Below, one piece after another: positions 23,870 to 44,796 of a stretch of 64,000 bases of DNA. Position 1 is the first letter of the stretch. Every line of letters begins with the position of its first letter. A program made the position numbers and the translations under genes. Where the stretch lies: contig CM000431.1 of NCBI GenBank assembly GCA_000165345.1, positions 704,001-768,000 of the forward strand, given 5' to 3'. A model generated the notes under the pieces. That model saw nothing but the letters and a program-made list of their open reading frames with translations. It was not told where the DNA came from and searched no databases.

Positions 23870-24916
23870 ATGAATTTTGGAAGGACAATTTATTTTTCGA
23901 TCAGTTCATTCTTCAGAGAAATGACACAAAAGTTTCTCAGCGCTGAAGAAGAAATTTTTATGCTAAAAAATAAATTTGCACCAGAAGAAAAAAAATACTT
24001 CTTAAAAGAATTTCACGATATTATACTATTCACATACAGGAATGAATTTAAAAATATTATCATAACTAGAAATACAGTACAACTAACAAAAAATTATTCA
24101 AAAAATATAAACTCTGATGTCGGGTGGGGATGCATGTATAGAGTGACCCAAATGTCGATTGCTCACGGTATATGCCAATTTATGAAGAGGTTTCTGGGCA
24201 ATTTAAATATCGAAAAAATTTTGAATAACTTTCAAGATAATGAAAGTGCAAAATTTTCAATTCATAATATGGTAAATATTGGTCTGAGTGAATTCGGAAT
24301 TGATCCTACATCTTGGATTGGACCAACAACATCATCAATGATCGCAAATAAGCTAATAAATGATAATAGAAGCATTATATCTAATATTCAGATTGCGAGT
24401 ATTACCTACGTAGAAGGCACTATTTATAGGGATCAAGCGGTTAAACACTTTTCAGAAGTGGGTTCAGATAGCTGTACTTTTGTATGGCTTTGCATGAAGT
24501 TGGGTACGTCCAAATTCAATATTAACTCATATAAGAAAACAGTAATTTCAATGAGTAATGTCTCACAGTTCATATGTATTATGGGAGGTAATAATTATTC
24601 GTCAGGGGCTTTATTAATTGTTGCATTTAGCAATTCCTTTTTGTATTGCTTAGATCCGCATATTAAAGTACTTCCATCATTTTCCGATAAAAACTTTATT
24701 AGGGATGACTTTATTCAAAAAGTTCCGACAAGGATTTATTGGGGGGAACTGAATTCATCTTTATCCATGGTTTATATTTGCCGAAACCTTGAAGATTTTG
24801 ATGATTTGTGCAGCAATTTAACTAGAATTAATTCTGATTTATTTGAAGTTATAAATAATTGTGATTTTGAAGTAAAGAGTATAAATGAATTAGATTCTGG
24901 TTTTTTAGTAGTATAA
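23870..24916 (+). CDS. ATG4: Autophagy cysteine protease ATG4 (peptidase C54).
   Basis: Catalytic-Cys block NSDVGWGCMYRVTQMSIAHG (nt ~24121-24150) matches D.GWGCMLR.GQM. Downstream YCLDPHIKV matches the catalytic His region (LDPH). Size 348 aa fits. Confidence 0.75.
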   Translation: MNFGRTIYFSISSFFREMTQKFLSAEEEIFMLKNKFAPEEKKYFLKEFHDIILFTYRNEFKNIIITRNTVQLTKNYSKNINSDVGWGCMYRVTQMSIAHGICQFMKRFLGNLNIEKILNNFQDNESAKFSIHNMVNIGLSEFGIDPTSWIGPTTSSMIANKLINDNRSIISNIQIASITYVEGTIYRDQAVKHFSEVGSDSCTFVWLCMKLGTSKFNINSYKKTVISMSNVSQFICIMGGNNYSSGALLIVAFSNSFLYCLDPHIKVLPSFSDKNFIRDDFIQKVPTRIYWGELNSSLSMVYICRNLEDFDDLCSNLTRINSDLFEVINNCDFEVKSINELDSGFLVV

Positions 24917-24934: not shown

Positions 24935-26209
24935 TTAAAAAATGGGGATTGAACCTATTATTTCCAGATTAGTTATCAAATAGGGGTATTCCAGACCAGG
25001 AACATTGGCATTTGGATGAGGAGTTACTTTGATTGAATATTGTAACTCTTTGATATCGTCTATGGAACCGGAAATTATTCTTCCATTAGAGTCTTGCAAG
25101 CAATTAATTTGTTGCGTTTTAAATGTAAACATAAATTCCGGTTGATTTGTTTGTATTTTACAATCCTTAAAAGAAAACATTAAATCTGAGATTTCTGCTC
25201 CTATCAGCTCTACATTTCCTAATTGAAGAATTTTTGTATTTAAGCAAAGCCCCATCTTTTTAAGTTTTTCAATGTTTGAGCAAAGTTGTCTATATGCTAC
25301 ATCCCCACAATGCAATCTCAGCTTGTGCTCGTCGCATTTAAGATATGATTCCATGAATTTTGGGAGAATGTATTCTTCAAAAAATGACATAAAGTCAGTT
25401 AATTTAAAATTTGGATTGATTGCCTTCATTTCTTTAACGACTTTAGATATTTTATTTCCATTATATATAGTTTTAAAATATTCACTTTCAAATATATTTT
25501 TCAATAATAACATATCCTTAAGTTTTACGCCGAGCCTGTTCCGTAAAGAATAATTGTGTAGCACAACAGAATTTTCTACTATTGGAACTATAGTTTTGCC
25601 TTCAATATTCTTATTTATAATTTTCTTATTGCTAGTTTTAATTTCACTGTTACTTTCTTTATTACAATCTGACTTCCAACTCGAAAGCTCTCTTTCTATC
25701 ACATTCCTATTGGTTTCATCATAGAATAAAACTTTTATTATTTCTATGTGCCTTGAAAAAAGGTTACTTGAAAGGAATCGAGAGAAAATTGAAGAAATTT
25801 TAGCTGTAAAAAATTTAATATGGGATAAAAATCTATTAATTTTATACAATTCTGCAATATTTATGAAATAAACCGAAGAATAGAAATTTATAAATGGTAA
25901 ATTACTGTAAAACTTGAAATATAAATTATCAAATTTTTTCTTCAAAAGTGCAATATCATCCTGTAGTATTTTGTCACTCTTAATTTCATTTTTTAATTGT
26001 GAAACAAATTTATTAAAATATGAATTAAATGTTGAATAACATCTTCGTTTTCTAAAATTTAAATTATTAAGTTGAGTGAAATGCATATAATATTTGTTGC
26101 TCTGATAAAACAAGAAAATATTTCTGCATATAGAAATATCCTGTCGAAGGTTGTATCTCAAGCTATTTATGCAAACTTTTGTTAAGGCATTGCTACTAAG
26201 CCCTTCCAT
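24935..26209 (-). CDS. Tim44-like domain protein (mitochondrial/mitosomal inner-membrane import motor tether; Tim44/MRPL45/Mba1 fold).
   Basis: C-terminal ~150 aa (FMSFFEEYILPKFMESYLKCDEHKLRLHCGDVAYRQLCSNIEKLKKMGLCLNTKILQLGNVELIGAEISD…FMFTFKTQQINCLQDSNGRIISGSIDDIKELQYSIKV…) parallels the Tim44 C-domain pattern (…VLEAY.KGD…L…CSE..Y..L…GL…D..ILDI.NVDL…G…F…F.AQ.I.CVRD..G.VVEG…I….YVW). Basic N-terminus. Confidence 0.55.
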   Translation of the reverse strand: MEGLSSNALTKVCINSLRYNLRQDISICRNIFLFYQSNKYYMHFTQLNNLNFRKRRCYSTFNSYFNKFVSQLKNEIKSDKILQDDIALLKKKFDNLYFKFYSNLPFINFYSSVYFINIAELYKINRFLSHIKFFTAKISSIFSRFLSSNLFSRHIEIIKVLFYDETNRNVIERELSSWKSDCNKESNSEIKTSNKKIINKNIEGKTIVPIVENSVVLHNYSLRNRLGVKLKDMLLLKNIFESEYFKTIYNGNKISKVVKEMKAINPNFKLTDFMSFFEEYILPKFMESYLKCDEHKLRLHCGDVAYRQLCSNIEKLKKMGLCLNTKILQLGNVELIGAEISDLMFSFKDCKIQTNQPEFMFTFKTQQINCLQDSNGRIISGSIDDIKELQYSIKVTPHPNANVPGLEYPYLITNLEIIGSIPIF

Positions 26210-28981: not shown

Positions 28982-31900
28982 CTAGGACTTCAACTGATCA
29001 ATTAATTCTTGAACAATATTTGTTGACTTATACTTTTTGCTCAATTTGATAATTACTTCTTTAATGTAATTATATATTTCTTTTTTACTTAATTCGTGGT
29101 TGTTTGCTCGATTCTCTAACAAACTAATTTGCTCTACTATTGCAGATTCAGATTTAACCTGCCCAGATAGAAACTTAATGATTAGTGGAATAATAGCTTC
29201 AATTTTATAGAACTCGATGCATCTTCTAATTATTCTAACTGACTCTGTACTATATATATTTTTGTATTTATTAACGATAAACTCATATACTTGTGTAGCC
29301 TTAATTGACTCCATTAAGTATATTTCCTCTACCTGAGATTTTCTCTTGAAATCAATTAGTTCATCCAATTGAGCTCCAATTTCAAAAAAAAGTTTTGAAT
29401 TATTTGTTTTAATTAATTCATTTGAAAGAGCTGAAGCCAATATGTTTGAATTTGTTGAATATATTAAATAAGGAAGCATATTGAAGCTATCTTTTTTATC
29501 AATTATTACTTTTATTATTTTTTCCCTGTTCATAGAAAATAATGCATAATGCAAATCTACCGGATTCACGTATGAAAATAGTAATTCAATTATTGCAACA
29601 TCAAATATACTATTGACTTCATAAATGTCAAAGTTCTTATCACGCATAATCGACGAGAGCTTACATCTTTTCTCTAGACTATTTATTTTATTATTTTCAG
29701 AAATATCCTTGATCAAATTTGTGAAAAATGATAAAATATTATTTATCAATCTTCGATCATTTTCCTTAGAAAAAGAATTCAAGCTTTCAATTAACTTTTT
29801 TAAATTTAGAATAGAGTTGATTAGCTCAATTATTGCATTTAATAGTTCAAACACTTCAATGAAGGGGATGACTGGGCATGTATTAAATATCTTAGAAAGA
29901 ATGGGGATAATAAATCGTTTATTTGGTAAATTATAAAGCAAGTTGTTATTGTAAACGCATTCTTTTTTATCTTTTCCATTTTGTGCATATTTATTAATTA
30001 GGTTTGAAATGTACTCAACCGTATTTTTGAGTAAAAATATCGGATCTAAAACTAACAAATTCCATACATCAATGATTGATTTATTAATTTTAACTTTATA
30101 TATATATCCGCTAATATATGCTGCAAAAATTAAATTGCTGAATATTTTTACATCATTTTCGTCAAAAAGCTGCAAATATAAATTTTTTATTGTGTTTGAA
30201 AATAGGTTTGAATCGTAGATTCCAAAATCTAAACAAAGTTTTGTGATTAAATATAATATTTGGTTTAATTTCTTATCAACACTTTGACATCGAGTATTAG
30301 AGCTGAGATATAAAGCGTTTGAATATTCATTCTCTTTACCGACTATACATCTTACCTTTCTTTTTCTATTTTCATCTTTAAGAAATTCAGCATCTTTTGT
30401 ATCTTCAATTTGGTCAAGGTGTATCTGATTTGGCTTTAACAATTTATAGGAATCCTTTCTATTATTAAACTCCCTCCAAAGAGATCTGGCCAATCCAACC
30501 TTTTCAGATAAATAAAACTTGCTAAAATCTTGTGGAATGTGCAATTCATTAAAGTAAATCATATAGTAATTGTGAAGCCATATAACTTGCAGATCATCAT
30601 ACTTTGGGTATCTCTTTTGAATGTTTTTGATAGAGGCAATTTGAAATAGAGTTTTTAAAGCATTGCACTTAGTTGAATAGCTATAATTCGATGAGTTTTT
30701 AAACGAAATAGATAACAAAAGTATTATTGCATCGTTCAAAGATATTCCTCCGCAAATGAATGAGATCCTATCAATATAGGTGCAGTCATAAACCTTTGAG
30801 TTGAGTGATTGTATTCTGTACCAGTGATCAAATCCTGTAATTATTCCAGAACTTTCAATATCTTTAAAAATATCTTTTATAGTTGGAAATTTATTTTTTA
30901 AAGCTTCATAAGGCGTTTCAAATGGCTTGCTTAAGAGATTCTTAATTATTCTCACTCTGATTTTTCTTATATCAGAAGAATATACGCTTGATATTTCATC
31001 AATAAAAAAATTAAAATTTTCTTTCAGCGTAAAATTTGAAGAGCCAGGAGATTTTTCTATAGAATTTTTCCTACTAAAACTATAAATTTCTCGTTCTGGT
31101 TTAGGATCAATACAAAAAGATTGACAAACTGATTCCTGTAATTTGTTCCTAAATTTCCAGTAAATTCCTTCTGAAATAAGCGGTGTAAGATAGTAGTATA
31201 AAGAACTGATGAAAATATTAATGTCATTTGTCTCTTCTATAAGTTTTGAAAAAATGATGTCTAATTTATGTTTTTTTAAAATAAGCTTTGATGAAATTAG
31301 GCTTTTTTTTGATTTTAAGTAGTTTTCAATATTTATGATGACTTCGTTAAATCTGTTATATAATAAGAATTCCATGTTTATGATTGGATACCCTTTCTTT
31401 AATTCGACTCTTGCAATTGATCCTGATTTTCTTTCGCACCACTCTATTAATTTAATCTTTGTTTTTGAAAGGGGAATCTCGTCGATAACAAGTAAAACTA
31501 TTGCAATGCCAGCTTCCAAATCAACTGAAGCAATTGATTCAATATATCTCAATAAAATTTTGTCACTCTCCACTAGTTTAAAGCAATATTCTTGAAATTC
31601 ATTTGATTCCGTTTTTAATAAATTATTTTCCGATAGATATTTATACTTTCTGCACAATACAATATTCCAGACAAATTGAATATCAATTGATATATTCTTT
31701 ATGCCCAAATATTCTGACATTTTCTTTATCTTATATATAGTCTCGTCATTTATTTCATATTTTAATGCATTTATCGGATGTTTAATGAGATAATGGAAAG
31801 GAATTCTATATTTATTAGATTCCACTTTAAAATTAACTTTTTTACCCAACTCAATATTTCCATTAATACGCTCGGCTTCATTTTTAATGAATAGTTTTTC

Positions 31901-34900
31901 ATCTTTATCTGCAGGGCAAACTCTTTTATAAGTTGATAGTATTTTGAGAACTTCTAGTTTAGAAATTGTGGAAATATTTTTATGGTTTTGATTTTCAACA
32001 AATCCTTTATTTATTTCACTAGAGCTACTACTCGTAGAATATTCATTGTTTGCTTCTGTTCTCAAATAAGCATTCATAGAGTTAGGAAGTTCAATAGTAT
32101 TAATACAATTTTTATTATACCAATTTAATACGAACTTTAGTCTTTCATAGTTAAAAGAAGAAATAAATTCAAAAGTGCTTTCAAAAATCTCCTTTCCAAG
32201 TTCTGGTGTCACAAATGAAAGAATATTTTGCATTATTAGTTCGAATTTAGGATCAAAATTGTGAAGTATCATTTGTTTCGACCAAAGAAATAGGATATAT
32301 TCATCGTTAATATTATAATCCTTTGCATACTGTAAACAAAGAATTAAGTCAAAATCACTTTTATGAATCAGCTTGCAAATAATACTTTTCTTATAACCCT
32401 GATTGTTATTTTGAGGATCTTGTTTCTGAAAAAAGAGTGACTGATCAAATTCAATTTTTAGTTGCCTAAAGCTGTTACACCACTTAGATTGTTTGTGAAG
32501 ATCTTCCATCTCCTTCCTCATGCTGTAATGGTTGAACAAAATTCCTAAATCCCATCCAATTCTTGCCATCCTCTGTGTCCTATAATAGTTATCAAGGATA
32601 TTTGATGGGTTTAAAGATTGTACAAAAACATTCCATGAATCTTTTTTTTCCAGGGAAGAAGATAATGCCATGCAAAGTTGGCCGTCTATAGGATCTCTAC
32701 CCTTCAGTACTTTACGGAAAAATTCTGTGTTAATATTCAAGGCTAATTTCACATCAGAAATTAGAAGAGGATGCTTTAAATATATGCTCATTGCTAATGT
32801 TAAGCATTCTGATTGATAGAGTTGTTTTGCTAGTACATCAACATTTTCTCTTAATTCTTGAATATATTTCCCAACGTCAATAGGATAGTTTTCGTTAGTT
32901 TGAATTGTCCAAAGTGTTGGGTCAGTCCAGAAATTATAAATTAAAAATGGAGATATGTAAATTTTTTTAATTGAAATCTGTTTTGAAAGCTCTTTGAAAA
33001 TTCTTATTTTGGTGTAGAGAAAAGCCATTACAATTTGCTTTGCATCAGTAAAGGGATAAAGAGTACAAATCTCTTTATAATATGATTTGTAAGAGTCCAA
33101 TGGCAAAAAATGTAAATTTTTGAGTGATTTCATGATAATTTTAGAAAAAAGGTGATTATCTAAATGATTGCTAATCAATTTATTATTTGGGTTCTCAATA
33201 TTATCAATCGCATCTGAAGCGTATAAAAGAAAATCGTGTACCCATAAAATATCCGAAGATAGTGCCAGTACAAAGCTGATTAATTTAATGGGGCAATAAG
33301 GAATACAAGTTGCAACTACTTGAAGCAACTTTGAAAATATAAAAATTAACTCCAATCCATCAATACGAGACTCTTTGTCAAATTTTGCTGCATAATTTTT
33401 TTTTTTATCAACTAAATCAACCGTAAGTAAATTCAAAATAATATTTTGCACTTCATCAACTATTGTTATTGCATTTTTTGAAGATGGGGTCTTAAATAAT
33501 TCTTGTGTTAACCTTCGAAAAATACACAATTTTCCACCATCTCTTAAGGAATTCCGTATATTAGTCCTTCTAATATAGCTTTCATCAACTCCAATCAAAC
33601 TTCCCAGCCTTAACAATTTTGTAAAGATACCTTTTTTTTTCTCATCCGATATCTTTTTTTCAAAATATGGTTGTGCAAACTCATCGAAAATTTCGCATAG
33701 CTTTATATAACAAGACTCTTTATATAATTGAAAATAACCATTTCTCCATTCAGAAATAAAACTTTCATCAATTATCTGTTTATTACACAAATCAGCTTCA
33801 ATCTTTCCAAATGGATTTGATAATGTATTTTTGTTTTGAATTGGTTCTAAATACGTCATTTTGTCTTGAATTTCTTTTCCTATTAAACAATTCTGATCGT
33901 GATCCATTTTGTCTATCATTATGTCGCTAGGCCTTATGTAAATCCCAAATTCAAATTGAAGCTGTTGAAGCCTAATAAGAGTATTAAAAGATTCATTTGA
34001 AGTCCAAAAAGTGTTTTGTCTTAATTTCCATTTGTTTTCTTGGATTGTTTTAAATAGTTCTCTTAAAACGACTACTGCAGAATATGTGGCAATTTCGCAT
34101 CTTATTTTTAATCTGTTAGACTTAATACAATTTTTTGAATAACAATCCAAAAACTGCCAAACAAAGCACACAAACTGTTGCGTAATACTATAAATCTTTT
34201 TACAATCTACATTCGAAAATATATCCAATATATCCTCTTCAATTGTTTTGTTATGTATCTCTTTTATTGACTTTTTGGTCATTTTTTCCCATTCAATAAT
34301 GTTTCTTCTCCTGAAAATTAAAAATCTTAGTCTTAAGCAATATGCCTCTGAGATACCCATAAATGTAGTGTTAGTTTCTTGTTTTAAATAGTCTATTAAA
34401 AACATTGCATCGTTGAATGATTCTATTCCAGCATCGACTTGAGAGATCACATGCAGGATCAATCGTCTAGGTGCATTTTTTTCGAACAATATTATTGATG
34501 CCATACTATCTAAATTATATCTAGAAAGTAAATTTTGTGCATCTATTAACGCGATTCTATTTTTAAGTTCAAATGATTTTTTACCATTAACAGAAATGTT
34601 CTTTGCATATGACATCAAAAAATCTATTTCATTTTGAGCGGAATGAGGAAACTTCAGATCTATGTTACGATCTATTGCAAGACATTTATTATTCAATGAT
34701 AAGTACTGCAATAAAGCATGTGCCTTGTACTCATCATTTGTAATTGAATTGATCAAAGAAATGATTCTCGGTTGATAATATTTCTTGCCATCTGTAGAAT
34801 TCAAGTTGCTTTCAAGGGAGTTATAATTTATAGATGAAATTAGTTCTAACAAATATTCCATGATTATTTGATCAGCTTCCAATCCTCTTATTTTGCAAAA

Positions 34901-37060
34901 TGGTATAACGTGATGATTAATTTCGTAATTAAGTAATTCAGAAGAAGAAATTCTACTTAAAAGCTTAAAAGCAATATCCCGATTAGATATTTTCTTGTAA
35001 TAAAGAGAGCTGAAGTTTATTTCTAGTTTATATCTGTTCTTTAAATCATTACATTCCAAAAACGCCCAATAAACTTGATTAATTTTATTTAAAGGAATTT
35101 TATTAATAGAATAGCGTTTATCGCCAGAGCCTGCCCAAAGGATACCATTCGAAACAATTTGTTTTGGAAGTACATGATTGTTTGAATAACTGTACTCATT
35201 TAGAAAAACTGATGATAAAAGGAATAAGCAACGATCAATATCTCCATTGGAAACGTGTTCCAACGTAATAGCTCTATCTGCTATCAAATTTAGTAATTTG
35301 TTTTTGTTAGTTACAAATGGGAATACTTGATTCACTAACCATGATGGAATTTCTTTTTCAATTTTCTCTGGCAAATTTACGGGCAAATTACTCAATGATT
35401 CTAATATAATTTCACTTCTAACTTCCTCATCGCCATCACCAAAGTGAATAAAGTGTCTGTTAAAAAGAAAAAAAAACTCCTCAACCAAGTTAAAAGATAA
35501 TAAGCAGTTACATAATTTTCCCAAGTCACATTTTAAAAATCTCTTTAATAAAATATCCCAATTTGTGTCGATTTCGTTTGGGTTAGAATCATATTCTGAA
35601 CATATTTTAAGTGCAGCTTCAAAATTTTTATAGTTATTTTTATAAATTATATCGAAAGTTATTGACTTTTGAATGATGTAGTTCATCTTCATTATGTGAG
35701 AATTACTCGAGTTTGAATTTTCAAGAGCGGAAATTAGTGAAGAAAGTAAATTTAGTGCATCTTCAACATTATATAAAGGAATTTTGTCTAAATACTCAAA
35801 TACATCATTCCAATCAACTTTTTCTGAATTAGAAATCAACTTTGTGAGTTGGGGAATTACTATATTAAATTTGAAAGCTCTATCGAACTGATTATTTAAT
35901 GTTTTTTCGGAATTTAAAATAATTTGTTCATCTTTTACGTTATAATTTTCAAATCTAGGAATTCTTTTGTCTTTAATTAAATTATAATTTGGTTCTTCTT
36001 CCAAAATATTAATGAGAATATTGCCGGTTTTCTCTTCTAAAGTACAACCTGCATAAAAAATAGTTGTTTCACACAAACCATGTGAGACAAAAGGAATAAA
36101 AGATGTGTTTAAGTCATTATAATTTGCTATGCATATTTCTGAAGAAATTTCGTGGCCTTTAAAAACCACTACACTAGAATCGTATACTATAATGTTTGCC
36201 AAAATATCGTCTAAAAATTTGGTCTGAGAAATATTAATAATATTATCTGGATCTTTGATATTGATTTTATTAGCCCTTAGTGGAATAAGGTTATCACTTG
36301 AAATGGCTATCTCAATTCCATTAAATGGAATTCCATCCTCGATATTCAAAAATATTACATTTACAATATTGCCTTTTACTGCTTTATAAAACGAAATTAG
36401 TTTAAAATCACATTTTCCCAAAGACATGTTTAAGATCTCTCCAATGGACAAAGAGTCTATCATTGTGCATTTAATCGTATTGCTATCAATATAAAATTTT
36501 TGTATAAAACTCGAATTTACAACAAATATCCCATTCTCGCATGGTGTTGCTCCTTTACTTTCGGTTGTTATTATGTTTCCAATTTCAATGGAATAACCTG
36601 AATTGAAGCGATCAATAGAAACAGGGAAAAAACCAGAAGAAAAATTAACTATAGCAATGATTCTTTGACGATCAATTGGTATATTAGAGAAGTTATCTAT
36701 TAGTATAATCTCGGAGTTTTCAATAGTTTTTGTTAAACCATGTTTCGCAGTTTTTACTTCGAGGACTGATTCATTTTCCAATGCAAGTAAATACACTGAA
36801 CTGCTGCTTAATATTATAAATAAATTATTATCTATCCATATACCATTTAATATTAATTCTTCCTCTGAATTGATCTTCCAAGAATAAATTAATTTCGCGT
36901 TCTCGTGATCTTTCGTAATTATAAAGAAAAATACTAAGTTTTCCACAATGATAGATAGCCTTTCATTGAAAATGGTTACCTTTCGAATACTATTTGTGTA
37001 TTTTTGCAAGTTTAGACCAGGTAGACTTCCTAGTTCGATTACTTTTTTTAGATACATCAA
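28982..37060 (-). CDS. Giant hypothetical protein (2,692 aa). The N-terminal ~350 aa is probably a beta-propeller; the rest alpha-solenoid-like.
   Basis: Single uninterrupted 8.1-kb ORF, convergent with KRR1 (stop codons 6 nt apart). No catalytic or named motif recognised. Confidence 0.6.
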   Translation of the reverse strand: MMYLKKVIELGSLPGLNLQKYTNSIRKVTIFNERLSIIVENLVFFFIITKDHENAKLIYSWKINSEEELILNGIWIDNNLFIILSSSSVYLLALENESVLEVKTAKHGLTKTIENSEIILIDNFSNIPIDRQRIIAIVNFSSGFFPVSIDRFNSGYSIEIGNIITTESKGATPCENGIFVVNSSFIQKFYIDSNTIKCTMIDSLSIGEILNMSLGKCDFKLISFYKAVKGNIVNVIFLNIEDGIPFNGIEIAISSDNLIPLRANKINIKDPDNIINISQTKFLDDILANIIVYDSSVVVFKGHEISSEICIANYNDLNTSFIPFVSHGLCETTIFYAGCTLEEKTGNILINILEEEPNYNLIKDKRIPRFENYNVKDEQIILNSEKTLNNQFDRAFKFNIVIPQLTKLISNSEKVDWNDVFEYLDKIPLYNVEDALNLLSSLISALENSNSSNSHIMKMNYIIQKSITFDIIYKNNYKNFEAALKICSEYDSNPNEIDTNWDILLKRFLKCDLGKLCNCLLSFNLVEEFFFLFNRHFIHFGDGDEEVRSEIILESLSNLPVNLPEKIEKEIPSWLVNQVFPFVTNKNKLLNLIADRAITLEHVSNGDIDRCLFLLSSVFLNEYSYSNNHVLPKQIVSNGILWAGSGDKRYSINKIPLNKINQVYWAFLECNDLKNRYKLEINFSSLYYKKISNRDIAFKLLSRISSSELLNYEINHHVIPFCKIRGLEADQIIMEYLLELISSINYNSLESNLNSTDGKKYYQPRIISLINSITNDEYKAHALLQYLSLNNKCLAIDRNIDLKFPHSAQNEIDFLMSYAKNISVNGKKSFELKNRIALIDAQNLLSRYNLDSMASIILFEKNAPRRLILHVISQVDAGIESFNDAMFLIDYLKQETNTTFMGISEAYCLRLRFLIFRRRNIIEWEKMTKKSIKEIHNKTIEEDILDIFSNVDCKKIYSITQQFVCFVWQFLDCYSKNCIKSNRLKIRCEIATYSAVVVLRELFKTIQENKWKLRQNTFWTSNESFNTLIRLQQLQFEFGIYIRPSDIMIDKMDHDQNCLIGKEIQDKMTYLEPIQNKNTLSNPFGKIEADLCNKQIIDESFISEWRNGYFQLYKESCYIKLCEIFDEFAQPYFEKKISDEKKKGIFTKLLRLGSLIGVDESYIRRTNIRNSLRDGGKLCIFRRLTQELFKTPSSKNAITIVDEVQNIILNLLTVDLVDKKKNYAAKFDKESRIDGLELIFIFSKLLQVVATCIPYCPIKLISFVLALSSDILWVHDFLLYASDAIDNIENPNNKLISNHLDNHLFSKIIMKSLKNLHFLPLDSYKSYYKEICTLYPFTDAKQIVMAFLYTKIRIFKELSKQISIKKIYISPFLIYNFWTDPTLWTIQTNENYPIDVGKYIQELRENVDVLAKQLYQSECLTLAMSIYLKHPLLISDVKLALNINTEFFRKVLKGRDPIDGQLCMALSSSLEKKDSWNVFVQSLNPSNILDNYYRTQRMARIGWDLGILFNHYSMRKEMEDLHKQSKWCNSFRQLKIEFDQSLFFQKQDPQNNNQGYKKSIICKLIHKSDFDLILCLQYAKDYNINDEYILFLWSKQMILHNFDPKFELIMQNILSFVTPELGKEIFESTFEFISSFNYERLKFVLNWYNKNCINTIELPNSMNAYLRTEANNEYSTSSSSSEINKGFVENQNHKNISTISKLEVLKILSTYKRVCPADKDEKLFIKNEAERINGNIELGKKVNFKVESNKYRIPFHYLIKHPINALKYEINDETIYKIKKMSEYLGIKNISIDIQFVWNIVLCRKYKYLSENNLLKTESNEFQEYCFKLVESDKILLRYIESIASVDLEAGIAIVLLVIDEIPLSKTKIKLIEWCERKSGSIARVELKKGYPIINMEFLLYNRFNEVIINIENYLKSKKSLISSKLILKKHKLDIIFSKLIEETNDINIFISSLYYYLTPLISEGIYWKFRNKLQESVCQSFCIDPKPEREIYSFSRKNSIEKSPGSSNFTLKENFNFFIDEISSVYSSDIRKIRVRIIKNLLSKPFETPYEALKNKFPTIKDIFKDIESSGIITGFDHWYRIQSLNSKVYDCTYIDRISFICGGISLNDAIILLLSISFKNSSNYSYSTKCNALKTLFQIASIKNIQKRYPKYDDLQVIWLHNYYMIYFNELHIPQDFSKFYLSEKVGLARSLWREFNNRKDSYKLLKPNQIHLDQIEDTKDAEFLKDENRKRKVRCIVGKENEYSNALYLSSNTRCQSVDKKLNQILYLITKLCLDFGIYDSNLFSNTIKNLYLQLFDENDVKIFSNLIFAAYISGYIYKVKINKSIIDVWNLLVLDPIFLLKNTVEYISNLINKYAQNGKDKKECVYNNNLLYNLPNKRFIIPILSKIFNTCPVIPFIEVFELLNAIIELINSILNLKKLIESLNSFSKENDRRLINNILSFFTNLIKDISENNKINSLEKRCKLSSIMRDKNFDIYEVNSIFDVAIIELLFSYVNPVDLHYALFSMNREKIIKVIIDKKDSFNMLPYLIYSTNSNILASALSNELIKTNNSKLFFEIGAQLDELIDFKRKSQVEEIYLMESIKATQVYEFIVNKYKNIYSTESVRIIRRCIEFYKIEAIIPLIIKFLSGQVKSESAIVEQISLLENRANNHELSKKEIYNYIKEVIIKLSKKYKSTNIVQELIDQLKS

Positions 37061-37337
37061 TATTAGTTTAATTAATTTTAGAAATCCATATGCGGTACAT
37101 GTATTATTGAGGGGAAATATTCAATTATTATCAACAGCAAATATTTTAAAAACTTAAAAATATTAGTATTAAGTTGGAATATTTTAGCTCTAACCTAGGT
37201 TATTTGTTGAATTTGAAATAAATTAAAACCTTTAACGAAAACTTAGTTTATTAGTGTCATTATTTCTGAAAAAAATAAAATGATCAGATTTTATCAAATT
37301 GAGAATAATATAAATTATTTTAAGAAAATGAAAATAA

Positions 37338-37481: not shown

Positions 37482-40400
37482 TTGTATTCAAATACAAATT
37501 TAACAGGCGTGATGAGAAATATAGATTTTTTTGAAATTTTTAAAAGATTGGATATTAATTATACAAATAAACAAGTAAATTCATGTTCAAGTATTAATTT
37601 AAAAAAAGACAGTATTCAACAAGAAGTTAATTCAAAAGAAAATCAACCACCTGAAAGTGGTGGATATAAACATCGTGAAAATGATGGAATATATTTAGAC
37701 ATTAACTTCAACTCTAACTCTATTGCACTCCAGCCATGTATCGCAATTAAAGAGAAATCATTCAGATTACCAATATTTGAATTGACGTATGATTTTCAAA
37801 TGCCTAATACTACATACCAAGTTAAACAAAACAGCAGGCTTTATGAAGAAATTTACTCATTAGTATATGCAAATTATTCAAATATCATAATTAATGAGAT
37901 TACTCCTTCGAGAAAAATAAAAATTTCTGAAACAAAACCTATTTTTGAAATCTCTGAAAAAGAAGGGAATCAATATTCTATATTTTGGGATGATGAAGAT
38001 ATCAAATCCAACTCATCAATTTTACTTGGTGAGTTTACTGGATTGCTGTATAATGACGAAAAAAAATACTATAACAAGTATTCTTTCAAATTGCCCAATG
38101 TTTCAAATGAAGAGTTAAGTGTTATTTTGGATGCGTCTCATTACTGTAATGAATTTGCTTTTCTAAAACATTGTAGGCTCCCCTTTCCATTCGATGATCA
38201 AAGAATAAGACCAAACACTCAGTTACAGTGGTTATTTATTGATAAATGGCCACATCTTGTTGTATTAACTATTCCTGGAATCGAAATTAAACAAGGCGAT
38301 GAACTTGTTGTCGATTTTGGGAACAATTATCATATGTATTACGTAAATAGTTTGAAAACAATATTTAAAAACATCATCAAAATTAAAGCGGAGAATACGC
38401 AAATTTTCCAAATTTGCACTGTATGTAGACTTGAACTAGAGAAAAGCATTATTGAATGTAAAAAGTGTATAATTTGCCGTGAATACATACATGATAAGTG
38501 TGGTTATTATTATAAAAACAGTGGAAACTCGGTTTGTTGTACTACTTGTTTAAAAAAATCTTTTAATATTATCTTTGGCATTAATAAAAAATTTGATTAT
38601 CCCTTCAGCGGAACAAATAATTCGAGTAAGGATTCAATTATTAGTATACTAAAAATTTATGATGGGGATGCATGCGAAGAATGTTTATCATTGTTTCGTA
38701 AAAAAGACTTGGAATTAGAAAGATGTAAGTCTGCATTCTTTTGTAAACTACTCCATGAATTTTATCAGGTAGATAAACACCCTGATAATATTGACTCTTT
38801 TTATGCAGAATATAATTCCAAAAACGAGACAGAACCAAAGTCAAGCATTAATATGGACATTAAAGCCCTTGAAAATATTTATTATATTTTTGAAAGACTA
38901 GTGAAATACTTAAAGGATTTTTATGATGAAAACAGTGTTTGCGAAAGATTAAAATTTGAATCATATTTTTCCCAAGATAATTATGTTGGTTATTCAAACC
39001 GTCAATCAAAATGTTTATTTCCAGATTCGTTAATCTACGAAACATGGGGAAAGTCGAAATGGAAAGATTTTATTTTTTGGGATCAGGCAAAAAATTCTTG
39101 GGTCGGATTACTAAGACCAAATGGGATATTTTCAAGATTCGATTGCTGTAATAAATATCCAACTATAATTGAAAGTTTTTATGAAACAGAAAAGTGGGTA
39201 GAACAGAGAATAAGCGAAACTACAATTCCAAAGAATTTGATTTCTGCAATATTGAATAATTCTGATAAAGGTTCCAATTGTAATGAAAAAGACTATTCTA
39301 AAAGTCAAGAAGATATTGTTTCACATACTTATTACCACTCGCCGTATTTACCTACTGATCTAGCATCACACCCAGACTTCAAAATATTCAGCAATGAAAA
39401 TGGAAACAAGTATCAAGGTAATTTACCTCCAGTCAACGAAACTAATAATCTATTTTCAATGAATGATAATCAGTTATTGAATGGAAAACTCAAGAACGCA
39501 AATGCTACTCATAGTGTTGAATCAGAATTGTTCTCATTTTCAAATTCGCCTGAATTTTTATTAAATGATATTAGACCACGTGTTTCTACCACAGGTTATA
39601 TTCAATGCTGTTCGCCAGTCAACAGAAAACGTAGAATAAGGTCAACTCTCCCCTTAACTTCGAATGCTGCAAAATGCCCAACTGAATGGAGAGTAAGAGG
39701 GATCACGTGGCATGCAGAAAGAAAAGCATTTATTGTACCATATAGAAGAGATAAAGATGGTGGGCTTACTTCAACAACTTTTGGTGCAATGAAGTATGGA
39801 AGCCCTTTGACTGCATTTTTAAAAGCTTTAGAATTTAGGGAAAATTATTTAAAGGAGCAGGCGACAAAGTTACCAGAAGAAATAAAGCAGCCAAGTGTTA
39901 TTTGTGATCAAGCATTATTAATTAGAAATTTACCAAATATAATTTGGGATTCGAACAAACTTGTATGGAGAGCTCTTGCAGATGAGGAACTCCTATGCAA
40001 TAATAACTTAACACATAAATTAACTTTTTATACACAAGATATTGAAATAAACGCAATGCCTTATGGAGCAAGAATTGCATATGAAATAGCCGAAGTTTGC
40101 TATATTCGTAGAAAAGCATTACTTCTTAACTCAAAGGTAAATACTATAAAAAATTCATCTGTAAGCCGTATAAGAAATAAGAGTAATTCATTAGAGGGTC
40201 ATGGAGACGAGTACCAATTGATATTAGAGGATCAAAACCATTTATTATTACCTAAAAATTCACAAATGGATATTTCAAACTCGCAAAGCTCTTGTTTCAA
40301 ACAAATCAGGTTGAAAATTATTTTTCCAAATGGAGAGGAAGTTATTAGAAGTGACTTGATTGCATGGCATTTTAGGAGTAATTCATGGATAATTACCAAT

Positions 40401-41144
40401 ATGATTGATGGAAGTACATCTAATCAAACGAAAAATATTAGTTTCCTCAATTATTCAGATTCCAATATAAAACAGAAATCTCTTATTCAATCATTAATTT
40501 ACGCAATTGAATGTTGTACATCTATACCTCCAAAGTGTCAAGTATACGTTCATGCAGAGGAAGCTGAGTCAATAATTGATTCTGAAGATCTTGCGGAATT
40601 GTTGAAACCTTTCCCAACAGGGATATCGTGGTATTGCAAAAAAAGAAGGTTTTATACATCAAATGGGCTTGATAGTAATGGAAGAGGACAACACTTTAGT
40701 ATTGCATTATACGGTTCACTTATTTCTGCATTTAATGCCGCAATTGACTATAGAAATATTTTTTTGAAAAATAGGAGAAAGGCTATTTTGCCAAAAGTTG
40801 AATGGATTCTATGCTTTCCTGTTAATCAATGTTCAACTAATACAGGTTCAAATGAAAGAATAAGCGATTCAGATATTATTAATAATCGAGATATAGTAAA
40901 GGAATTGGATAGTTGCAACATTTATCATTTATCCGATAATTATATGGGGAGTTGTAACGATAGAAATATTGATCGAATAAATAGTCAAATATCATCATTA
41001 AATACATGTATTTCAGGAGATTCATATCATTCTGGAAGTGATTGGCTTCAACATCCAACAACAGTTTCATTGTTGGACGATCAGATAATTGAGCCACAAA
41101 ATGATTTGGATAACAGAATAATGAATATTGAATTAATAGAATAA
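37482..41144 (+). CDS. ApiAP2-family DNA-binding protein with two AP2 domains plus an N-terminal SET-like domain and a PHD-like Cys-rich finger.
   Basis: AP2-1 (nt ~39671-39855): CPTEWRVRGITWHAERKAFIVPYRRDKDGGLTSTTFGAMKYGSPLTAFLKALEFRENYL. AP2-2 (nt ~40621-40775): ISWYCKKRRFYTSNGLDSNGRGQHFSIALYGSLISAFNAAIDYRNIFL. SET-like (nt ~38019-38340): ILLGEFTGLLYNDEKKYYNKYSFKL … ILDASHYCNEFAFLKHC … HLVVLTIPGIEIKQGDELVVDFGNNY. PHD-like (nt ~38415-38560): CTVCRLELEKSIIECKKCIICREYIHDKCGYYYKNSGNSVCCTTCLKK. Confidence 0.7.
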   Translation: MYSNTNLTGVMRNIDFFEIFKRLDINYTNKQVNSCSSINLKKDSIQQEVNSKENQPPESGGYKHRENDGIYLDINFNSNSIALQPCIAIKEKSFRLPIFELTYDFQMPNTTYQVKQNSRLYEEIYSLVYANYSNIIINEITPSRKIKISETKPIFEISEKEGNQYSIFWDDEDIKSNSSILLGEFTGLLYNDEKKYYNKYSFKLPNVSNEELSVILDASHYCNEFAFLKHCRLPFPFDDQRIRPNTQLQWLFIDKWPHLVVLTIPGIEIKQGDELVVDFGNNYHMYYVNSLKTIFKNIIKIKAENTQIFQICTVCRLELEKSIIECKKCIICREYIHDKCGYYYKNSGNSVCCTTCLKKSFNIIFGINKKFDYPFSGTNNSSKDSIISILKIYDGDACEECLSLFRKKDLELERCKSAFFCKLLHEFYQVDKHPDNIDSFYAEYNSKNETEPKSSINMDIKALENIYYIFERLVKYLKDFYDENSVCERLKFESYFSQDNYVGYSNRQSKCLFPDSLIYETWGKSKWKDFIFWDQAKNSWVGLLRPNGIFSRFDCCNKYPTIIESFYETEKWVEQRISETTIPKNLISAILNNSDKGSNCNEKDYSKSQEDIVSHTYYHSPYLPTDLASHPDFKIFSNENGNKYQGNLPPVNETNNLFSMNDNQLLNGKLKNANATHSVESELFSFSNSPEFLLNDIRPRVSTTGYIQCCSPVNRKRRIRSTLPLTSNAAKCPTEWRVRGITWHAERKAFIVPYRRDKDGGLTSTTFGAMKYGSPLTAFLKALEFRENYLKEQATKLPEEIKQPSVICDQALLIRNLPNIIWDSNKLVWRALADEELLCNNNLTHKLTFYTQDIEINAMPYGARIAYEIAEVCYIRRKALLLNSKVNTIKNSSVSRIRNKSNSLEGHGDEYQLILEDQNHLLLPKNSQMDISNSQSSCFKQIRLKIIFPNGEEVIRSDLIAWHFRSNSWIITNMIDGSTSNQTKNISFLNYSDSNIKQKSLIQSLIYAIECCTSIPPKCQVYVHAEEAESIIDSEDLAELLKPFPTGISWYCKKRRFYTSNGLDSNGRGQHFSIALYGSLISAFNAAIDYRNIFLKNRRKAILPKVEWILCFPVNQCSTNTGSNERISDSDIINNRDIVKELDSCNIYHLSDNYMGSCNDRNIDRINSQISSLNTCISGDSYHSGSDWLQHPTTVSLLDDQIIEPQNDLDNRIMNIELIE

Positions 41145-41199: not shown

Positions 41200-44100
41200 A
41201 TGAACAGAAACTCGATAATATCTCAATGCAACGTTGATCCCACTGTTTTCTTCTATTATTCAGGTAATAACTTCCACAAAAAATTGGGATTATATTTTAT
41301 TGATGATTTTACCTACGAAAATATTAATAAAATTTTTGAACACACAAATGAGTCAAAACTAACTTTTACTCCAGCTATTGGTGAAATATCAGACCCAATT
41401 TTTTCCGGAGAAACATCTATTGAATATTCATCCGAATTTTTCCCAAGATTTTCCTGGAGCAAAAACGATACTTTTGGTGCATTTACAACTGGTATTTCTC
41501 GCGAAATAAAAATATTGTATTTGAACAAGGGGCAACTCCAAATTTCAGAAGAGATTCATACTCCTGATTACTTTTGTTCTTGTCTTGAACTAAATAATTA
41601 TGTAAATTTTCATTTATTGGCTTCTTCCAATATTAAATATTTCAATTCTCAAAATTTCGCTCAAGGAATTATTTCTATAATCGATTCCAACACTAAACAA
41701 AACATTGTAAATTATCATAAAGGTTCTAGCTTCGAAAGACTTAATAATATTTCCGGATATCCTAATAATGTTAAGTGGATAAACTCCAACTGCTTGGTTT
41801 CTGGCTGGAAGCTTTGTAATTATTCAAGCCAATTGCATTTTTACGACATACGAGCTAAAGATGCAATTTTTGCTACCAATATTATGACCAATTGTAATGA
41901 ACTCCTAGCAGTTAGCCAAACTGGAGGTAATTATTTACTTTCCAGTAACTTAAATAACATTATTTGTATATTTGATATAAGGTTTATGAAAAATGAACCA
42001 AGACAAAATATTATTCAAACATTAAACTGCATTTATTTTAATGATAATGAGATCAACGATATACAGTGGTTTCCAAATGGAGAACTCAATATTTCAATTT
42101 ATACTAATGATGGGATCTTTATTGCAGAGTTAAATAAAGAAATAAACTCACATATATCTTTTGAAGCATACAAGTCAGATAATCGTTTTGAAAATATCTA
42201 TTGGAATGAAAATTTAATCAAGCATTACAAGCCATTAAGTCTTAAAGAAGATTTCAGCGATACATTTTGTTGGGTTAATTATTTTGGAGGAAGTAACAAT
42301 AAACATTCATTAGTATACACAACTTCTGAGTCTGCATATCTTTTATCAAATTTAGAAATTAAAATTAATTCTTTTCCTACCTTTCGAATTTCTCCACTGG
42401 ATTCTCATTCAATAGATACGAAACATAAGCCTCAAAAAATTAATTACAGGGTTTCAAATTCTCCAAAATTGTTTGGTTACTCATGGATTCCATATAGGAT
42501 AATAAAATACTATAAAAATGATAAGAAAATTGAAGAGTACAACTGCATAGAGTTATTGAGAAGACTTGAGAACATAAATTCAACAGAAGCTAGAAATTTG
42601 GTCATTAATCAAAATGATCAGAAAAAGTTAATTGATATTGGAATTTTCCCATTAGCATTAAATAACTTAACTAATATTATAAAAATTATTAAATCTGCTT
42701 CTCATGCATTTAATTACTTATCAACTTTACCTAATCGAATTATTCATTGGAAAGATATTTTGAGGCAATTTAACAAGCAAGGCCTATTTAGTGGTGAAAA
42801 CGTGTCTGTTTTAGATAAATTAATGTTACCAGGAATCAGAGACTTAGTTTATATTTTTAAGTTGGAAGCAGGGAATAGTGATATATCTACCCAGCTGAGA
42901 TTTATTAATGTCAAGTATGAAGATTTAGAAAATAAGTCTTCTAAATGCTTGAATATGAGAGAAAATTTTCATCACATTGAAATATTTTGTTCTCCTTTTA
43001 GAGAGAAGTTAATAAATCTTTTTGGAGTATCCTCATTTATTATTGAAACGCCTATCTTTATAGACAATAATGACCCAATTCAATTAGAATCATTTTTAAT
43101 CACATTTTTTTGGAACTGCATTACACTTCAATACCAGAATTTTATTTCTCACGGTGATAAGCTATCAAATATTCTTGATAATTTTATTGATAATGAAAAT
43201 AAGCTACTCAAATCCTCTTTTTTAAAAAATATTAAGTTGTTTTTTAATTCTGCTGGGATTTTTATTTCGAATTTATATTCTTCAGAAGAACTAAATAAAA
43301 TTTCTTTAAGCAGAAAAGATATTCAGTTCTACTACTATTCAATTATTTCAACAAGCGAACATTTACTAGATGAAGATTATTACTTGCCTATTTGGAACAG
43401 CAACATTCATTTTGAATCTAGTCTTCAACTTTCAATAAGATTTATTGTTGCATTTTCCAAATTTATTAATATCCATGATCAAAACAAGCAATTTTCTTCA
43501 TATTTATTGGATGAACTATTAATTCCTTCCATGAGAATAAACTCTTATATTTATATTCCTGCTAATTTGTTACTTTTGATTGGAATTTATTATTTACCTT
43601 TGGAGGAAATTTGTAACTTGATAGAAATAATTATAAGAAAAATGGCTCAAAATGGTTTTTTAGATGGAATATCAATTTTAGGGTTTAATACATTTACTGA
43701 TGAAACATTTTTGTTAAGAAGTTTTCCTGATAACTACAACTCTGAACAATTTGAAACCTTTCTCGGGAATTTCAATTTGAACGAAAATCTTGATTCGATA
43801 TTTTTAGAGCCAGAAAATAATATAAATAAAAATTTTGGTTATAATTTGAGCTCTCAAGTATTTCTTAATTTAATTTTTCGCAAATATTTATCTCTTTCAT
43901 TTGGAGATATTCAAACAGTTGCATTAATTGGATCGTGTATTCCTAATCTCTCTGGTGGTCTCAAAAAAAATATGGAATTATTAAAGATTTGCATTGATGA
44001 ATACAAAGATTTATTGAAGAATAACTCTTTAATATATTATCTAATTTATAGCTCAAACATAATCGGCCTTTTAAAAAATGGATCTAAATCCGCAAAATTT

Positions 44101-44796
44101 ACTTATAATAATGTATCGGGCATACTTTATGAGCTTAATATCCTAAGATCGAGTTACTATAAAATGATTCATATTGACCAGGATCAATTAAAGCCACTAT
44201 TACCAACTGGGAATATATTATTTTGCTATTATTGCGAGCAGCCATTATGCCAAGCATATTTCGAGCAGAGTTGCTTTTTTGAAAAAAGCAATTCGAACAT
44301 GGATTGTAATTCAATAATTTCTCAATCATTCAATACAGACCTTTCTGAAGTTCAATTAGACAAAAAAGAAATAGTTTTTAAGAATATTTATAATAGAGAC
44401 TATCAGGTAGGATATTCGTTACGTTGGACAAGCAGTAATAAATCAAGTATAAATAGTTTAATTCAACCTGAAGCTATTCAAAGTTTGGAGTTATCATCTA
44501 TGATCTTAAACTGCCCTAATAAATATTGTAACAAACCTCTACCAAGATGCGTAATTTGTTTGACAGAAATGTCTATCAATGTGATTAGTAATTCAATCAA
44601 TGATGACGCTGCGCAAAAGGACTGTACTCAACAATGTAATTATAATAAATTGAGTAAATGGTATACTTGGTGTTTGCATTGCCACCATGGCGGATGTTTT
44701 AAACATATCAGTGAATGGTTTGAGTGTTTTGATGAATGCCCTGTACCGGAGTGCAATTGTTGGTGTAATTCAGTAGATCGTTGGCACAAATTATAA
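41200..44796 (+). CDS. WD40-repeat protein with a C-terminal GATOR2/SEACAT-type zinc finger (Mios/WDR24/WDR59 = Sea4/Sea2/Sea3-like).
   Basis: N-terminal region has WD-like strands (…DIQWFPNGELNISIYTNDGIFIAEL…). C-terminal 100 aa (nt ~44527-44796): CNKPLPRCVICLTEM…WCLHCHHGGCFKHISEWFECFDECPVPECNCWC resembles the GATOR2 RING signature C-x2-C…C-x2-C-x-H-G-G-H…W…CP-x-G-C-x-C-x-C. Confidence 0.5.
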   Translation: MNRNSIISQCNVDPTVFFYYSGNNFHKKLGLYFIDDFTYENINKIFEHTNESKLTFTPAIGEISDPIFSGETSIEYSSEFFPRFSWSKNDTFGAFTTGISREIKILYLNKGQLQISEEIHTPDYFCSCLELNNYVNFHLLASSNIKYFNSQNFAQGIISIIDSNTKQNIVNYHKGSSFERLNNISGYPNNVKWINSNCLVSGWKLCNYSSQLHFYDIRAKDAIFATNIMTNCNELLAVSQTGGNYLLSSNLNNIICIFDIRFMKNEPRQNIIQTLNCIYFNDNEINDIQWFPNGELNISIYTNDGIFIAELNKEINSHISFEAYKSDNRFENIYWNENLIKHYKPLSLKEDFSDTFCWVNYFGGSNNKHSLVYTTSESAYLLSNLEIKINSFPTFRISPLDSHSIDTKHKPQKINYRVSNSPKLFGYSWIPYRIIKYYKNDKKIEEYNCIELLRRLENINSTEARNLVINQNDQKKLIDIGIFPLALNNLTNIIKIIKSASHAFNYLSTLPNRIIHWKDILRQFNKQGLFSGENVSVLDKLMLPGIRDLVYIFKLEAGNSDISTQLRFINVKYEDLENKSSKCLNMRENFHHIEIFCSPFREKLINLFGVSSFIIETPIFIDNNDPIQLESFLITFFWNCITLQYQNFISHGDKLSNILDNFIDNENKLLKSSFLKNIKLFFNSAGIFISNLYSSEELNKISLSRKDIQFYYYSIISTSEHLLDEDYYLPIWNSNIHFESSLQLSIRFIVAFSKFINIHDQNKQFSSYLLDELLIPSMRINSYIYIPANLLLLIGIYYLPLEEICNLIEIIIRKMAQNGFLDGISILGFNTFTDETFLLRSFPDNYNSEQFETFLGNFNLNENLDSIFLEPENNINKNFGYNLSSQVFLNLIFRKYLSLSFGDIQTVALIGSCIPNLSGGLKKNMELLKICIDEYKDLLKNNSLIYYLIYSSNIIGLLKNGSKSAKFTYNNVSGILYELNILRSSYYKMIHIDQDQLKPLLPTGNILFCYYCEQPLCQAYFEQSCFFEKSNSNMDCNSIISQSFNTDLSEVQLDKKEIVFKNIYNRDYQVGYSLRWTSSNKSSINSLIQPEAIQSLELSSMILNCPNKYCNKPLPRCVICLTEMSINVISNSINDDAAQKDCTQQCNYNKLSKWYTWCLHCHHGGCFKHISEWFECFDECPVPECNCWCNSVDRWHKL

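Follow-up and report, generated by a model that had tools for sequence, protein, structure and literature searches.

In Cryptosporidium, a genus in which few transcription factors or chromatin enzymes can be recognised, can a predicted DNA-binding protein that carries a histone methyltransferase-type domain modify chromatin itself, or has that domain become something other than an enzyme? The question is raised by an open reading frame (ORF) in a 64,000-nucleotide stretch of the Cryptosporidium parvum contig CM000431.1 (assembly GCA_000165345.1, positions 704,001–768,000 of the forward strand), referred to below as the window. The encoded protein combines a divergent SET domain, a PHD-type zinc finger and two AP2 modules. 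Our analysis identifies it as a member of the apicomplexan SET10/AP2VIIa-7 family and suggests that it is probably a nuclear chromatin-targeting scaffold, not an enzyme. The features on which this rests are the following (window coordinates; aa, amino acids):

37512..41144, + strand: complete coding sequence of the SET10-like/PHD/2xAP2 protein (1,210 aa plus stop); ATG start, exact protein match
37731..37916, + strand: N-terminal family-conserved region before the SET core (aa 84–145, QPCI...LYEEIYSLVY); 17 of 62 residues invariant in the genus
37917..38339, + strand: divergent SET10-type SET domain (aa 146–286), without GxG and with EFTG, FLKHC and DELVVDFG variants
38409..38555, + strand: PHD-type C4HC3 zinc finger (aa 310–358), without the Trp that normally precedes the last Cys pair
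39672..39860, + strand: AP2 domain 1 (D1; aa 731–793); Pfam AP2 E 5.4e-4 to 1.7e-3, 19.0–20.6 bits, sub-threshold
40602..40781, + strand: AP2 domain 2 (D2; aa 1041–1100) with an LKPFPTGISW lead-in; Pfam AP2 E 4.9e-4

The original prediction described an ORF of 1,220 aa. The frame is indeed uninterrupted (37482..41144, + strand), but its first codon is TTG; the first ATG lies 10 codons further in, at 37512, and the 1,210-aa translation from this position is identical to the annotated C. parvum protein EAK89035.1 (Q5CUG0; CPATCC_001309). Residue numbers given here follow the mechanical ORF numbering from the TTG codon, and those of the annotated protein are obtained by subtracting 10. The gene occupies 744.6–748.2 kb of the 1.10-Mb chromosome record CP044420.1, and the window has a G+C content of ~30% and long intronless ORFs. 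Full-length orthologues were found in Cryptosporidium only (8 clusters, with identities from 97% for C. hominis to 43% for C. muris). The precomputed annotation of all 8 clusters includes PF00847 (AP2), and the C. felis orthologue has already been annotated as a putative H3K4 methyltransferase. All conservation counts refer to nine Cryptosporidium orthologues, from C. parvum to C. muris.

A profile of aa 84–308 was built from these nine orthologues and searched against 1.84 billion representative proteins. This search revealed 31 matches at E≤1e-3 and, beyond the Cryptosporidium orthologues, these are apicomplexan and chromerid proteins (hmmsearch E-values of 6.2e-16 for B. microti SET10, 7.3e-14 for Cardiosporidium AP2VIIa-7, 3.7e-8 for P. 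falciparum SET10 and 8.6e-7 for Neospora AP2VIIa-7). The B. microti and P. falciparum proteins are named [quoted passage not shown], and those of Neospora, Cardiosporidium and Cyclospora “AP2 domain transcription factor AP2VIIa-7”. Other matches include a Toxoplasma “histone lysine methyltransferase, SET”, Vitrella PHD-type proteins and a second Cryptosporidium protein of ~1,470 aa (the paralogue). The Neospora protein and the paralogue were also recovered by BLASTP, with E-values of 8e-12 and 3e-14, respectively. Among 29 relatives, Pfam domains were found as follows: PHD in 16 (best 6e-13), PTM/DIR17 Tudor in 10, SET in 3 (8e-15) and AP2 in 1.

The family consensus reads GEYTG ... Y.F.L ... 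LDSS..NE.S.VNHY ... N.EWQ.VYVDGWPHIVLTSIPGV.I.PGDEL.ADFG..WF and is followed by a PHD finger. The SET blocks that had been pointed out earlier in the C. parvum protein (LLGEFTG, YSFKL, LDASHYCNEFAFLKHC and PNTQLQWLFIDKWPHLVVLTIPGIEIKQGDELVVDFG) are present and conserved in the nine orthologues, and the preceding region, aa 84–145, can be aligned with its counterparts in B. microti SET10 and the paralogue. At the level of sequence, the protein is thus a member of the SET10/AP2VIIa-7 family. A homologue search seeded with the family alignment returned a single match and left the alignment no deeper.

The fold of this region was examined with AlphaFold (AF2). A model of aa 140–378, computed from a 20-sequence family alignment that includes distant relatives, reached a predicted local distance difference test score (pLDDT) of 76.4 and a predicted template modelling (TM) score of 0.60. 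Comparison of the model with the PDB by Foldseek gave 322 matches at E≤1e-3, the best 50 of which are all SET or PR domains; for the SET domain of MLL1, the E-value was 1.1e-6, the probability 1.00 and the TM score (target) 0.57–0.67. When the SET-only family profile was compared with PDB sequences, 22 of 24 matches were SET methyltransferases, with marginal E-values (SET8, 0.044). hhalign comparison of the same profile with the human SET8 SET domain gave a probability of 94.5% (E 7e-8); the SET8 sequence used agrees with the PDB alignment from the profile search. According to the model, aa 146–286 keep the SET beta-fold, in the place where a SET-like domain had been proposed.

The PHD finger starts ~25 aa past the SET domain, and each of its ligands has a counterpart in the aligned PHD fingers of the family. 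Its ligands (C312-x2-C315-x13-C329-x2-C332-x4-H337-x2-C340-x12-C353-x2-C356) show canonical spacing and are invariant in the nine orthologues; they make up eight of the 11 invariant positions among the 49 of the finger. The corresponding fingers of several relatives exceed the Pfam PHD cut-off (27.3 bits for the C. canis paralogue, 30.1 for Neospora AP2VIIa-7, 29.7 and 31.5 for Cardiosporidium), and a family PHD profile matched solved structures, with CHD4 PHD at 1.6e-9 and also DPF2, AIRE and UHRF1. With the orthogroup profile, comparison with the PDB gave BRD1 PHD at 0.18. The Trp two residues before the seventh Cys is missing, since the sequence reads SVCCTTC (V, I or Y in the orthologues) as against EWFCxxC in the family. 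The PHD-like finger of the original prediction is therefore best described, from its ligand pattern, as a degenerate PHD finger.

Both ApiAP2 domains were located where they had been claimed, as near-full-length, sub-threshold matches to Pfam AP2. D1 and D2 are invariant across the genus at 61 of 63 and 54 of 60 positions, respectively, although the whole proteins of C. parvum and C. muris are only ~45% identical. The two domains show a relationship to one another (hhalign 83%, E 8.5e-6) as well as to the C-terminal AP2 of the paralogue and the AP2 of a Cardiosporidium protein annotated as AP2VIIa-7. The LKPFPTGISW lead-in of D2 recurs in the AP2 domains of these two proteins, and phmmer with D2 recovered the Cardiosporidium protein (6.4e-5) and the paralogue (8e-4). 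A small profile, the seed of which contained the Neospora domain, also linked the modules to the AP2 domains in AP2VIIa-7 of Neospora and Besnoitia. Pfam AP2 was matched by five of seven related domains (best 1.6e-5), none of them above the cut-off. Taken by their profile relationships, D1 and D2 are AP2-type domains.

Whether the SET domain could function as an enzyme was judged from its signature residues. In the hhalign alignment with SET8, FLKH pairs with LINH and DELVVDFG pairs with EELLYDYG; the Asn of NHxC is therefore replaced by Lys and the last Tyr by Phe. The Phe is common to the family, PfSET10 included, and is no peculiarity of this gene. The Lys is specific to the orthogroup (VNH(Y/F) in the core family), as is the loss of the EYxG Tyr: the core family has EYTG, C. 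parvum and C. hominis have EFTG, and EITG, ELTG, EVTG or EISG are found elsewhere. GxG (motif I) is absent in all nine orthologues; the corresponding strand is EGNQYSIFW (DCYTVVY in the family), in which NQY would occupy the GxG position, judging from the strand order in the SET-like model. Relative to canonical SET methyltransferases (SET8/KMT5A, MLL1, EZH2; CpSET8, 4LDG), four catalytic or cofactor signature positions are thus changed, and the protein has the PHD finger in place of their post-SET Cys cluster. The 10-residue insertion between the (N/K)H and PN motifs, detected by hhalign, is common to the whole family.

Further changes are seen within the genus. In C. muris, the motif IV block (opposite window positions 38300–38340, aa ~273–286) is DELFADLRLLNLG; with five inserted residues and no Phe, it has DLRLLNLG in place of DFG. 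In motif III of C. xiaoi, KY replaces KH. As read from these substitutions, the former active site is decaying within Cryptosporidium. The fold itself is under constraint, since 44 of the 141 positions of the SET domain do not vary across the genus, among them the H of KH, the WPH block and DEL. The domain is probably non-catalytic and kept as a binding or structural module. An earlier reading of its degeneracy (SHYCNEF...KHC for NHxC and DFG for DY) as the mark of a pseudo-methyltransferase agrees with the residue mapping to SET8.

Three short sequence features outside the domains are also relevant to the function proposed for the protein:

39336..39377, + strand: invariant motif HSPYLPTDLASHPD (aa 619–632), identical in nine orthologues
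39624..39641, + strand: basic patch RKRRIR shortly before D1, a putative nuclear-localisation signal; K716–R720 invariant
41043..41084, + strand: near-invariant C-terminal motif WLQHPTTVSLLDDQ; W1188–L1198, D1200 and Q1201 invariant, position 1199 D or E

The two motifs are conserved in the nine orthologues while their flanking sequence is poorly conserved, and they may be partner-docking peptides; the proposed role of the basic patch follows from its composition only. In the scaffold that we consider probable, the AP2 modules would anchor the protein at DNA sites or on AP2-containing partners. The SET fold, devoid of the signature residues of the S-adenosylmethionine site and the lysine channel (GxG; EYxG Tyr to Phe, Ile, Leu or Val; Asn to Lys; Tyr to Phe), would form together with the PHD finger a surface that binds histone tails or partners. 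By analogy with TgAP2VIIa-7, this surface might recruit bromodomain or other chromatin complexes, with HSPYLPTDLASHPD and WLQHPTTVSLLDDQ docking partners.

Several observations weigh against this proposal; they concern the domain calls, the AP2 modules and the loss of catalysis. With respect to the domain calls, a Pfam scan of the whole protein found no SET, PHD or AP2 domain, and phmmer of the whole protein against the PDB gave no match. The hidden Markov model (HMM) searches suggested in the original prediction did detect the three families in isolated segments, but every match remained under the curated gathering score: SET with 17.6 bits (E 0.0054; cut-off 22.4; model positions 8–105 of 105), AP2 with 19.0 bits in D1 (E 1.7e-3; cut-off 33.3; 2–52 of 54) and 20.8 bits in D2 (E 4.9e-4; cut-off 33.3; 5–49 of 54), and PHD (PF00628) with 8.8 bits (E 2.2; cut-off 24). 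In the finger segment, PHD was outscored by C1_1 (E 0.0089) and RING (E 0.023). SET (PF00856) was the top Pfam family in seven of the nine orthologues, always sub-threshold (best 3.1e-4). Moreover, the AF2 model of the SET domain rests on the 20-sequence alignment; prediction of aa 84–400 from the nine-orthologue alignment gave a pLDDT of 35.

Since all the Pfam scores lie under the cut-off, the domain call is borderline by the HMM criterion, and it is the remote homology and the fold evidence that rescue it. The blank whole-protein scan and the low pLDDT would also suit a plain ApiAP2 factor with a lineage-specific N-terminus, in which the resemblance to SET and PHD arose by chance in low-complexity, AT-rich coding sequence. 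We give this explanation a negligible probability. It is refuted by the profile search, significant against 1.84 billion proteins, by the fold searches, whose best 50 matches out of 322 are all SET or PR domains, and by the hhalign match to SET8; the invariant C4HC3 ligands and the 1.6e-9 match of the family PHD profile also argue against it.

As regards the AP2 modules, comparison of the domain sequences and of an AP2 profile with the PDB matched no solved AP2 structure. A second point depends on the identity of the gene, which, from its chromosomal position, is probably cgd3_2970. A published list of 18 ApiAP2 genes contains two entries on chromosome 3, cgd3_1980 and cgd3_2970 (PMC12246861), and at the usual 2.2–2.6 kb per ten ID units (coordinates from PMC9487757) only the latter fits. 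cgd3_2970 is listed as male-specific (male gamont), Cryptosporidium-specific and one that “does not bind DNA” on microarrays (PMC12246861, citing Oberstaller 2014). If it is the same gene, the lack of a microarray motif weakens the DNA-targeting step.

These results, together with the sub-threshold Pfam scores, raise the possibility that the AP2-like modules mediate protein-protein interactions and that the protein belongs to a chromatin complex as a subunit that does not itself bind DNA, which would be compatible with the other readings. The high invariance of D1 and D2 fits a tight protein interface equally well. We regard this as possible, though doubtful: nearly the whole Pfam AP2 model is covered, in two independent modules and with matches in five of seven related domains, ApiAP2 domains that depend on a neighbouring domain are often negative on microarrays when used in isolation (noted in PMC4117751), and the link to cgd3_2970 was drawn from gene position.

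The predicted loss of catalysis has to be set against results obtained with PfSET10, the knockout of which abolishes H3K18me1 (PMC11580448). A SET10-type domain with Phe at the last Tyr position may therefore still be active, so that the case for inactivity here rests mainly on the added Asn-to-Lys and Tyr-to-Phe/Ile changes. As a homologue of PfSET10, the protein could be an active methyltransferase, its AP2 modules bringing the SET10-type domain to loci where H3 is methylated (e.g. at H3K18 or H3K4). The retained SET fold with its invariant residues and the annotation of the C. felis orthologue are in keeping with such activity, as is the finding that PfSET10 immunoprecipitates methylated H3K4, for which co-purifying enzymes remain a possible source (cited in PMC11580404). 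Nevertheless, we consider an active enzyme unlikely. Recombinant PfSET10 SET-PHD was inactive in vitro (PMC11580404), GxG is absent from the Cryptosporidium orthogroup, in which the EYxG Tyr and the NH Asn kept by the SET10/AP2VIIa-7 core have gone as well, and motifs IV and III are further eroded in C. muris and C. xiaoi, respectively.

The combination of SET, PHD and AP2 domains in one chain, which the original prediction implied to be novel, is already known, and the window gene adds a member to a described apicomplexan family. In published work, TgAP2VIIa-7 is described as an AP2 factor that also contains PHD and SET domains and that belongs to the core partners of the bromodomain proteins BDP1, BDP2 and BDP5 (PMC10470533). 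T. gondii AP2VIIa-7 (TGME49_202490) and its counterparts in Neospora (NCLIV_022440) and Besnoitia (BESB_066670) share the order of a SET10-type SET domain, a PHD finger and then a downstream AP2; in the Neospora protein these lie at 844–1004 (SET-like), 1200–1239 (PHD) and 2421–2461 (AP2). The C-terminal half of the Neospora SET domain is 31% identical to that of the window protein (E 8e-12), and there, too, Phe replaces the last Tyr. The coccidian proteins differ in their length (~3,000 versus 1,210 aa), in having one detected AP2 domain rather than two, and in carrying EYTG and VNH(F/Y) where the window protein has EFTG and LKHC.

PfSET10 (PF3D7_1221000) and the piroplasm SET10 proteins have a divergent SET domain of the same type, with a PHD finger behind it. 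The PfSET10 SET domain is divergent and was likewise missed by standard HMM screens (PMC11580404); blood-stage parasites can do without the protein (PMC11580404, PMC7860991). Unlike the window protein, PfSET10 keeps the Tyr of EYTG and the Asn of NH, and the small profile used picked up no AP2 domain in the SET10 proteins of Plasmodium and Babesia. Many SET10 members, including B. microti SET10 and 10 of 29 relatives overall, carry a Tudor domain of the PTM/DIR17 type, which gave no match in the window protein at E≤10.

The paralogue is encoded outside the window. It is represented in C. canis by a 1,467-aa “PHD domain-containing protein” and in C. meleagridis by cmbei_6002240, which corresponds to the position of cgd6_2240, and it is present in C. 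muris as well; its annotation mentions an [quoted passage not shown]. It resembles the window protein in its SET10-type SET domain (43% identity over 69 aa, E 3e-14), in its PHD finger and in a C-terminal AP2 domain whose lead-in is of the LRPFPxGIxW type (LRPFPHGITW); in all, one clear and two weaker AP2-like domains were found in its C-terminal part. It differs in the presence of a Tudor domain (8e-11) and a ~90-aa insert in the SET domain, in a PHD finger above the Pfam cut-off and in intact EYTG and LNH motifs, and it is a closer counterpart of Plasmodium SET10 (E 1e-35) than the window protein is.

Neighbour joining on 86 alignment columns recovered the window orthogroup as monophyletic (91%) and placed it outside the core SET10/AP2VIIa-7 clade, with the deep branches unsupported. 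SET variants of FLKH or QLH type, not VNHY/EWQ, were also observed in Cardiosporidium (P0033), Cystoisospora suis (P0035) and Babesia microti (P0022/P0057; BMR1_02g03206). There are hints in these sequences of an old second SET10 subfamily across Apicomplexa, a point that the 86-column tree leaves unsupported.

Comparison with published gene lists showed that neither the window gene nor the chromosome-6 paralogue is among the ten catalogued C. parvum SET genes, a list that includes no gene on chromosome 3 and none of 1,210 aa (PMC9487757). The paralogue is also absent from the 18-gene ApiAP2 list (PMC12246861), and the SET and PHD parts of both genes are unmentioned in ApiAP2 catalogues. Since both genes are missing from the SET list and these parts from the ApiAP2 catalogues, the SET and ApiAP2 inventories of Cryptosporidium are incomplete.

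The question of whether PfSET10 is an enzyme or a scaffold divides two reports (PMC11580404 against PMC11580448). Because its residue pattern predicts that it cannot methylate, the window copy offers a natural test of the SET10-type domain in the two roles. We tentatively put forward a more specific idea, which we hold to be less probable than the scaffold function itself: the orthogroup could represent an old, separate branch of SET10 in which a dead SET domain, used as a binding module, is tethered to two invariant AP2 domains, forming a “reader-targeter” that is perhaps specific to male gamonts. If this were true, the AP2 fusion would be ancestral to the SET10 family and lost in Plasmodium and piroplasms, which would make PfSET10 a former ApiAP2 protein. 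Should the gene be cgd3_2970, it would encode a male-stage factor and be a candidate regulator of sexual development.

Beside these elements, one more conserved region was recognised between the AP2 modules:

39861..40136, + strand: conserved inter-AP2 region (aa 794–885) with YGARIAYEIAEVxYxRxKAL; 40 of 92 residues invariant

This region matched no Pfam family, and hhalign comparison with D1 and D2 gave probabilities of <1%. Three stretches that looked AP2-like by eye (aa 515–585, 810–885 and 940–1015) were rejected, as they gave no Pfam match and hhalign probabilities to D1/D2 of ≤14%; the segment aa ~950–980 showed a weak partial HMM match to the AP2 profile and nothing more. In the conserved region before the SET domain, aa 104–128 (37791–37865) weakly matched ECR1_N_2, the N-terminal domain of exosome RRP4, in seven of nine orthologues (E 0.002–0.08), a match that was treated as probably spurious.

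The gene shares a 451-bp upstream intergenic region (20.6% G+C) with a divergent neighbour at 28982–37060 (− strand). When this region was searched for known C. parvum promoter motifs, none was found except one GAGGGG at 37109. The neighbour encodes 2,691 aa with a KNTC1/ROD-type ARM domain (PF24515) and is a possible component of the RZZ kinetochore complex. Downstream, 55 bp past the stop codon, lies a gene at 41200–44796 (+ strand) for a protein of 1,198 aa with a C-terminal zinc_ribbon_16 as in MIOS/GATOR2-type proteins. Elsewhere in the window, two genes relevant to the mitosome encode an HscB-type Fe-S co-chaperone (1141–1875, − strand) and a Tim44-domain protein (24935–26209, − strand), and others encode a C54 peptidase of ATG4 type (23870–24916, + strand) and a protein of the eIF2B/IF-2B family (57774–58847, − strand).

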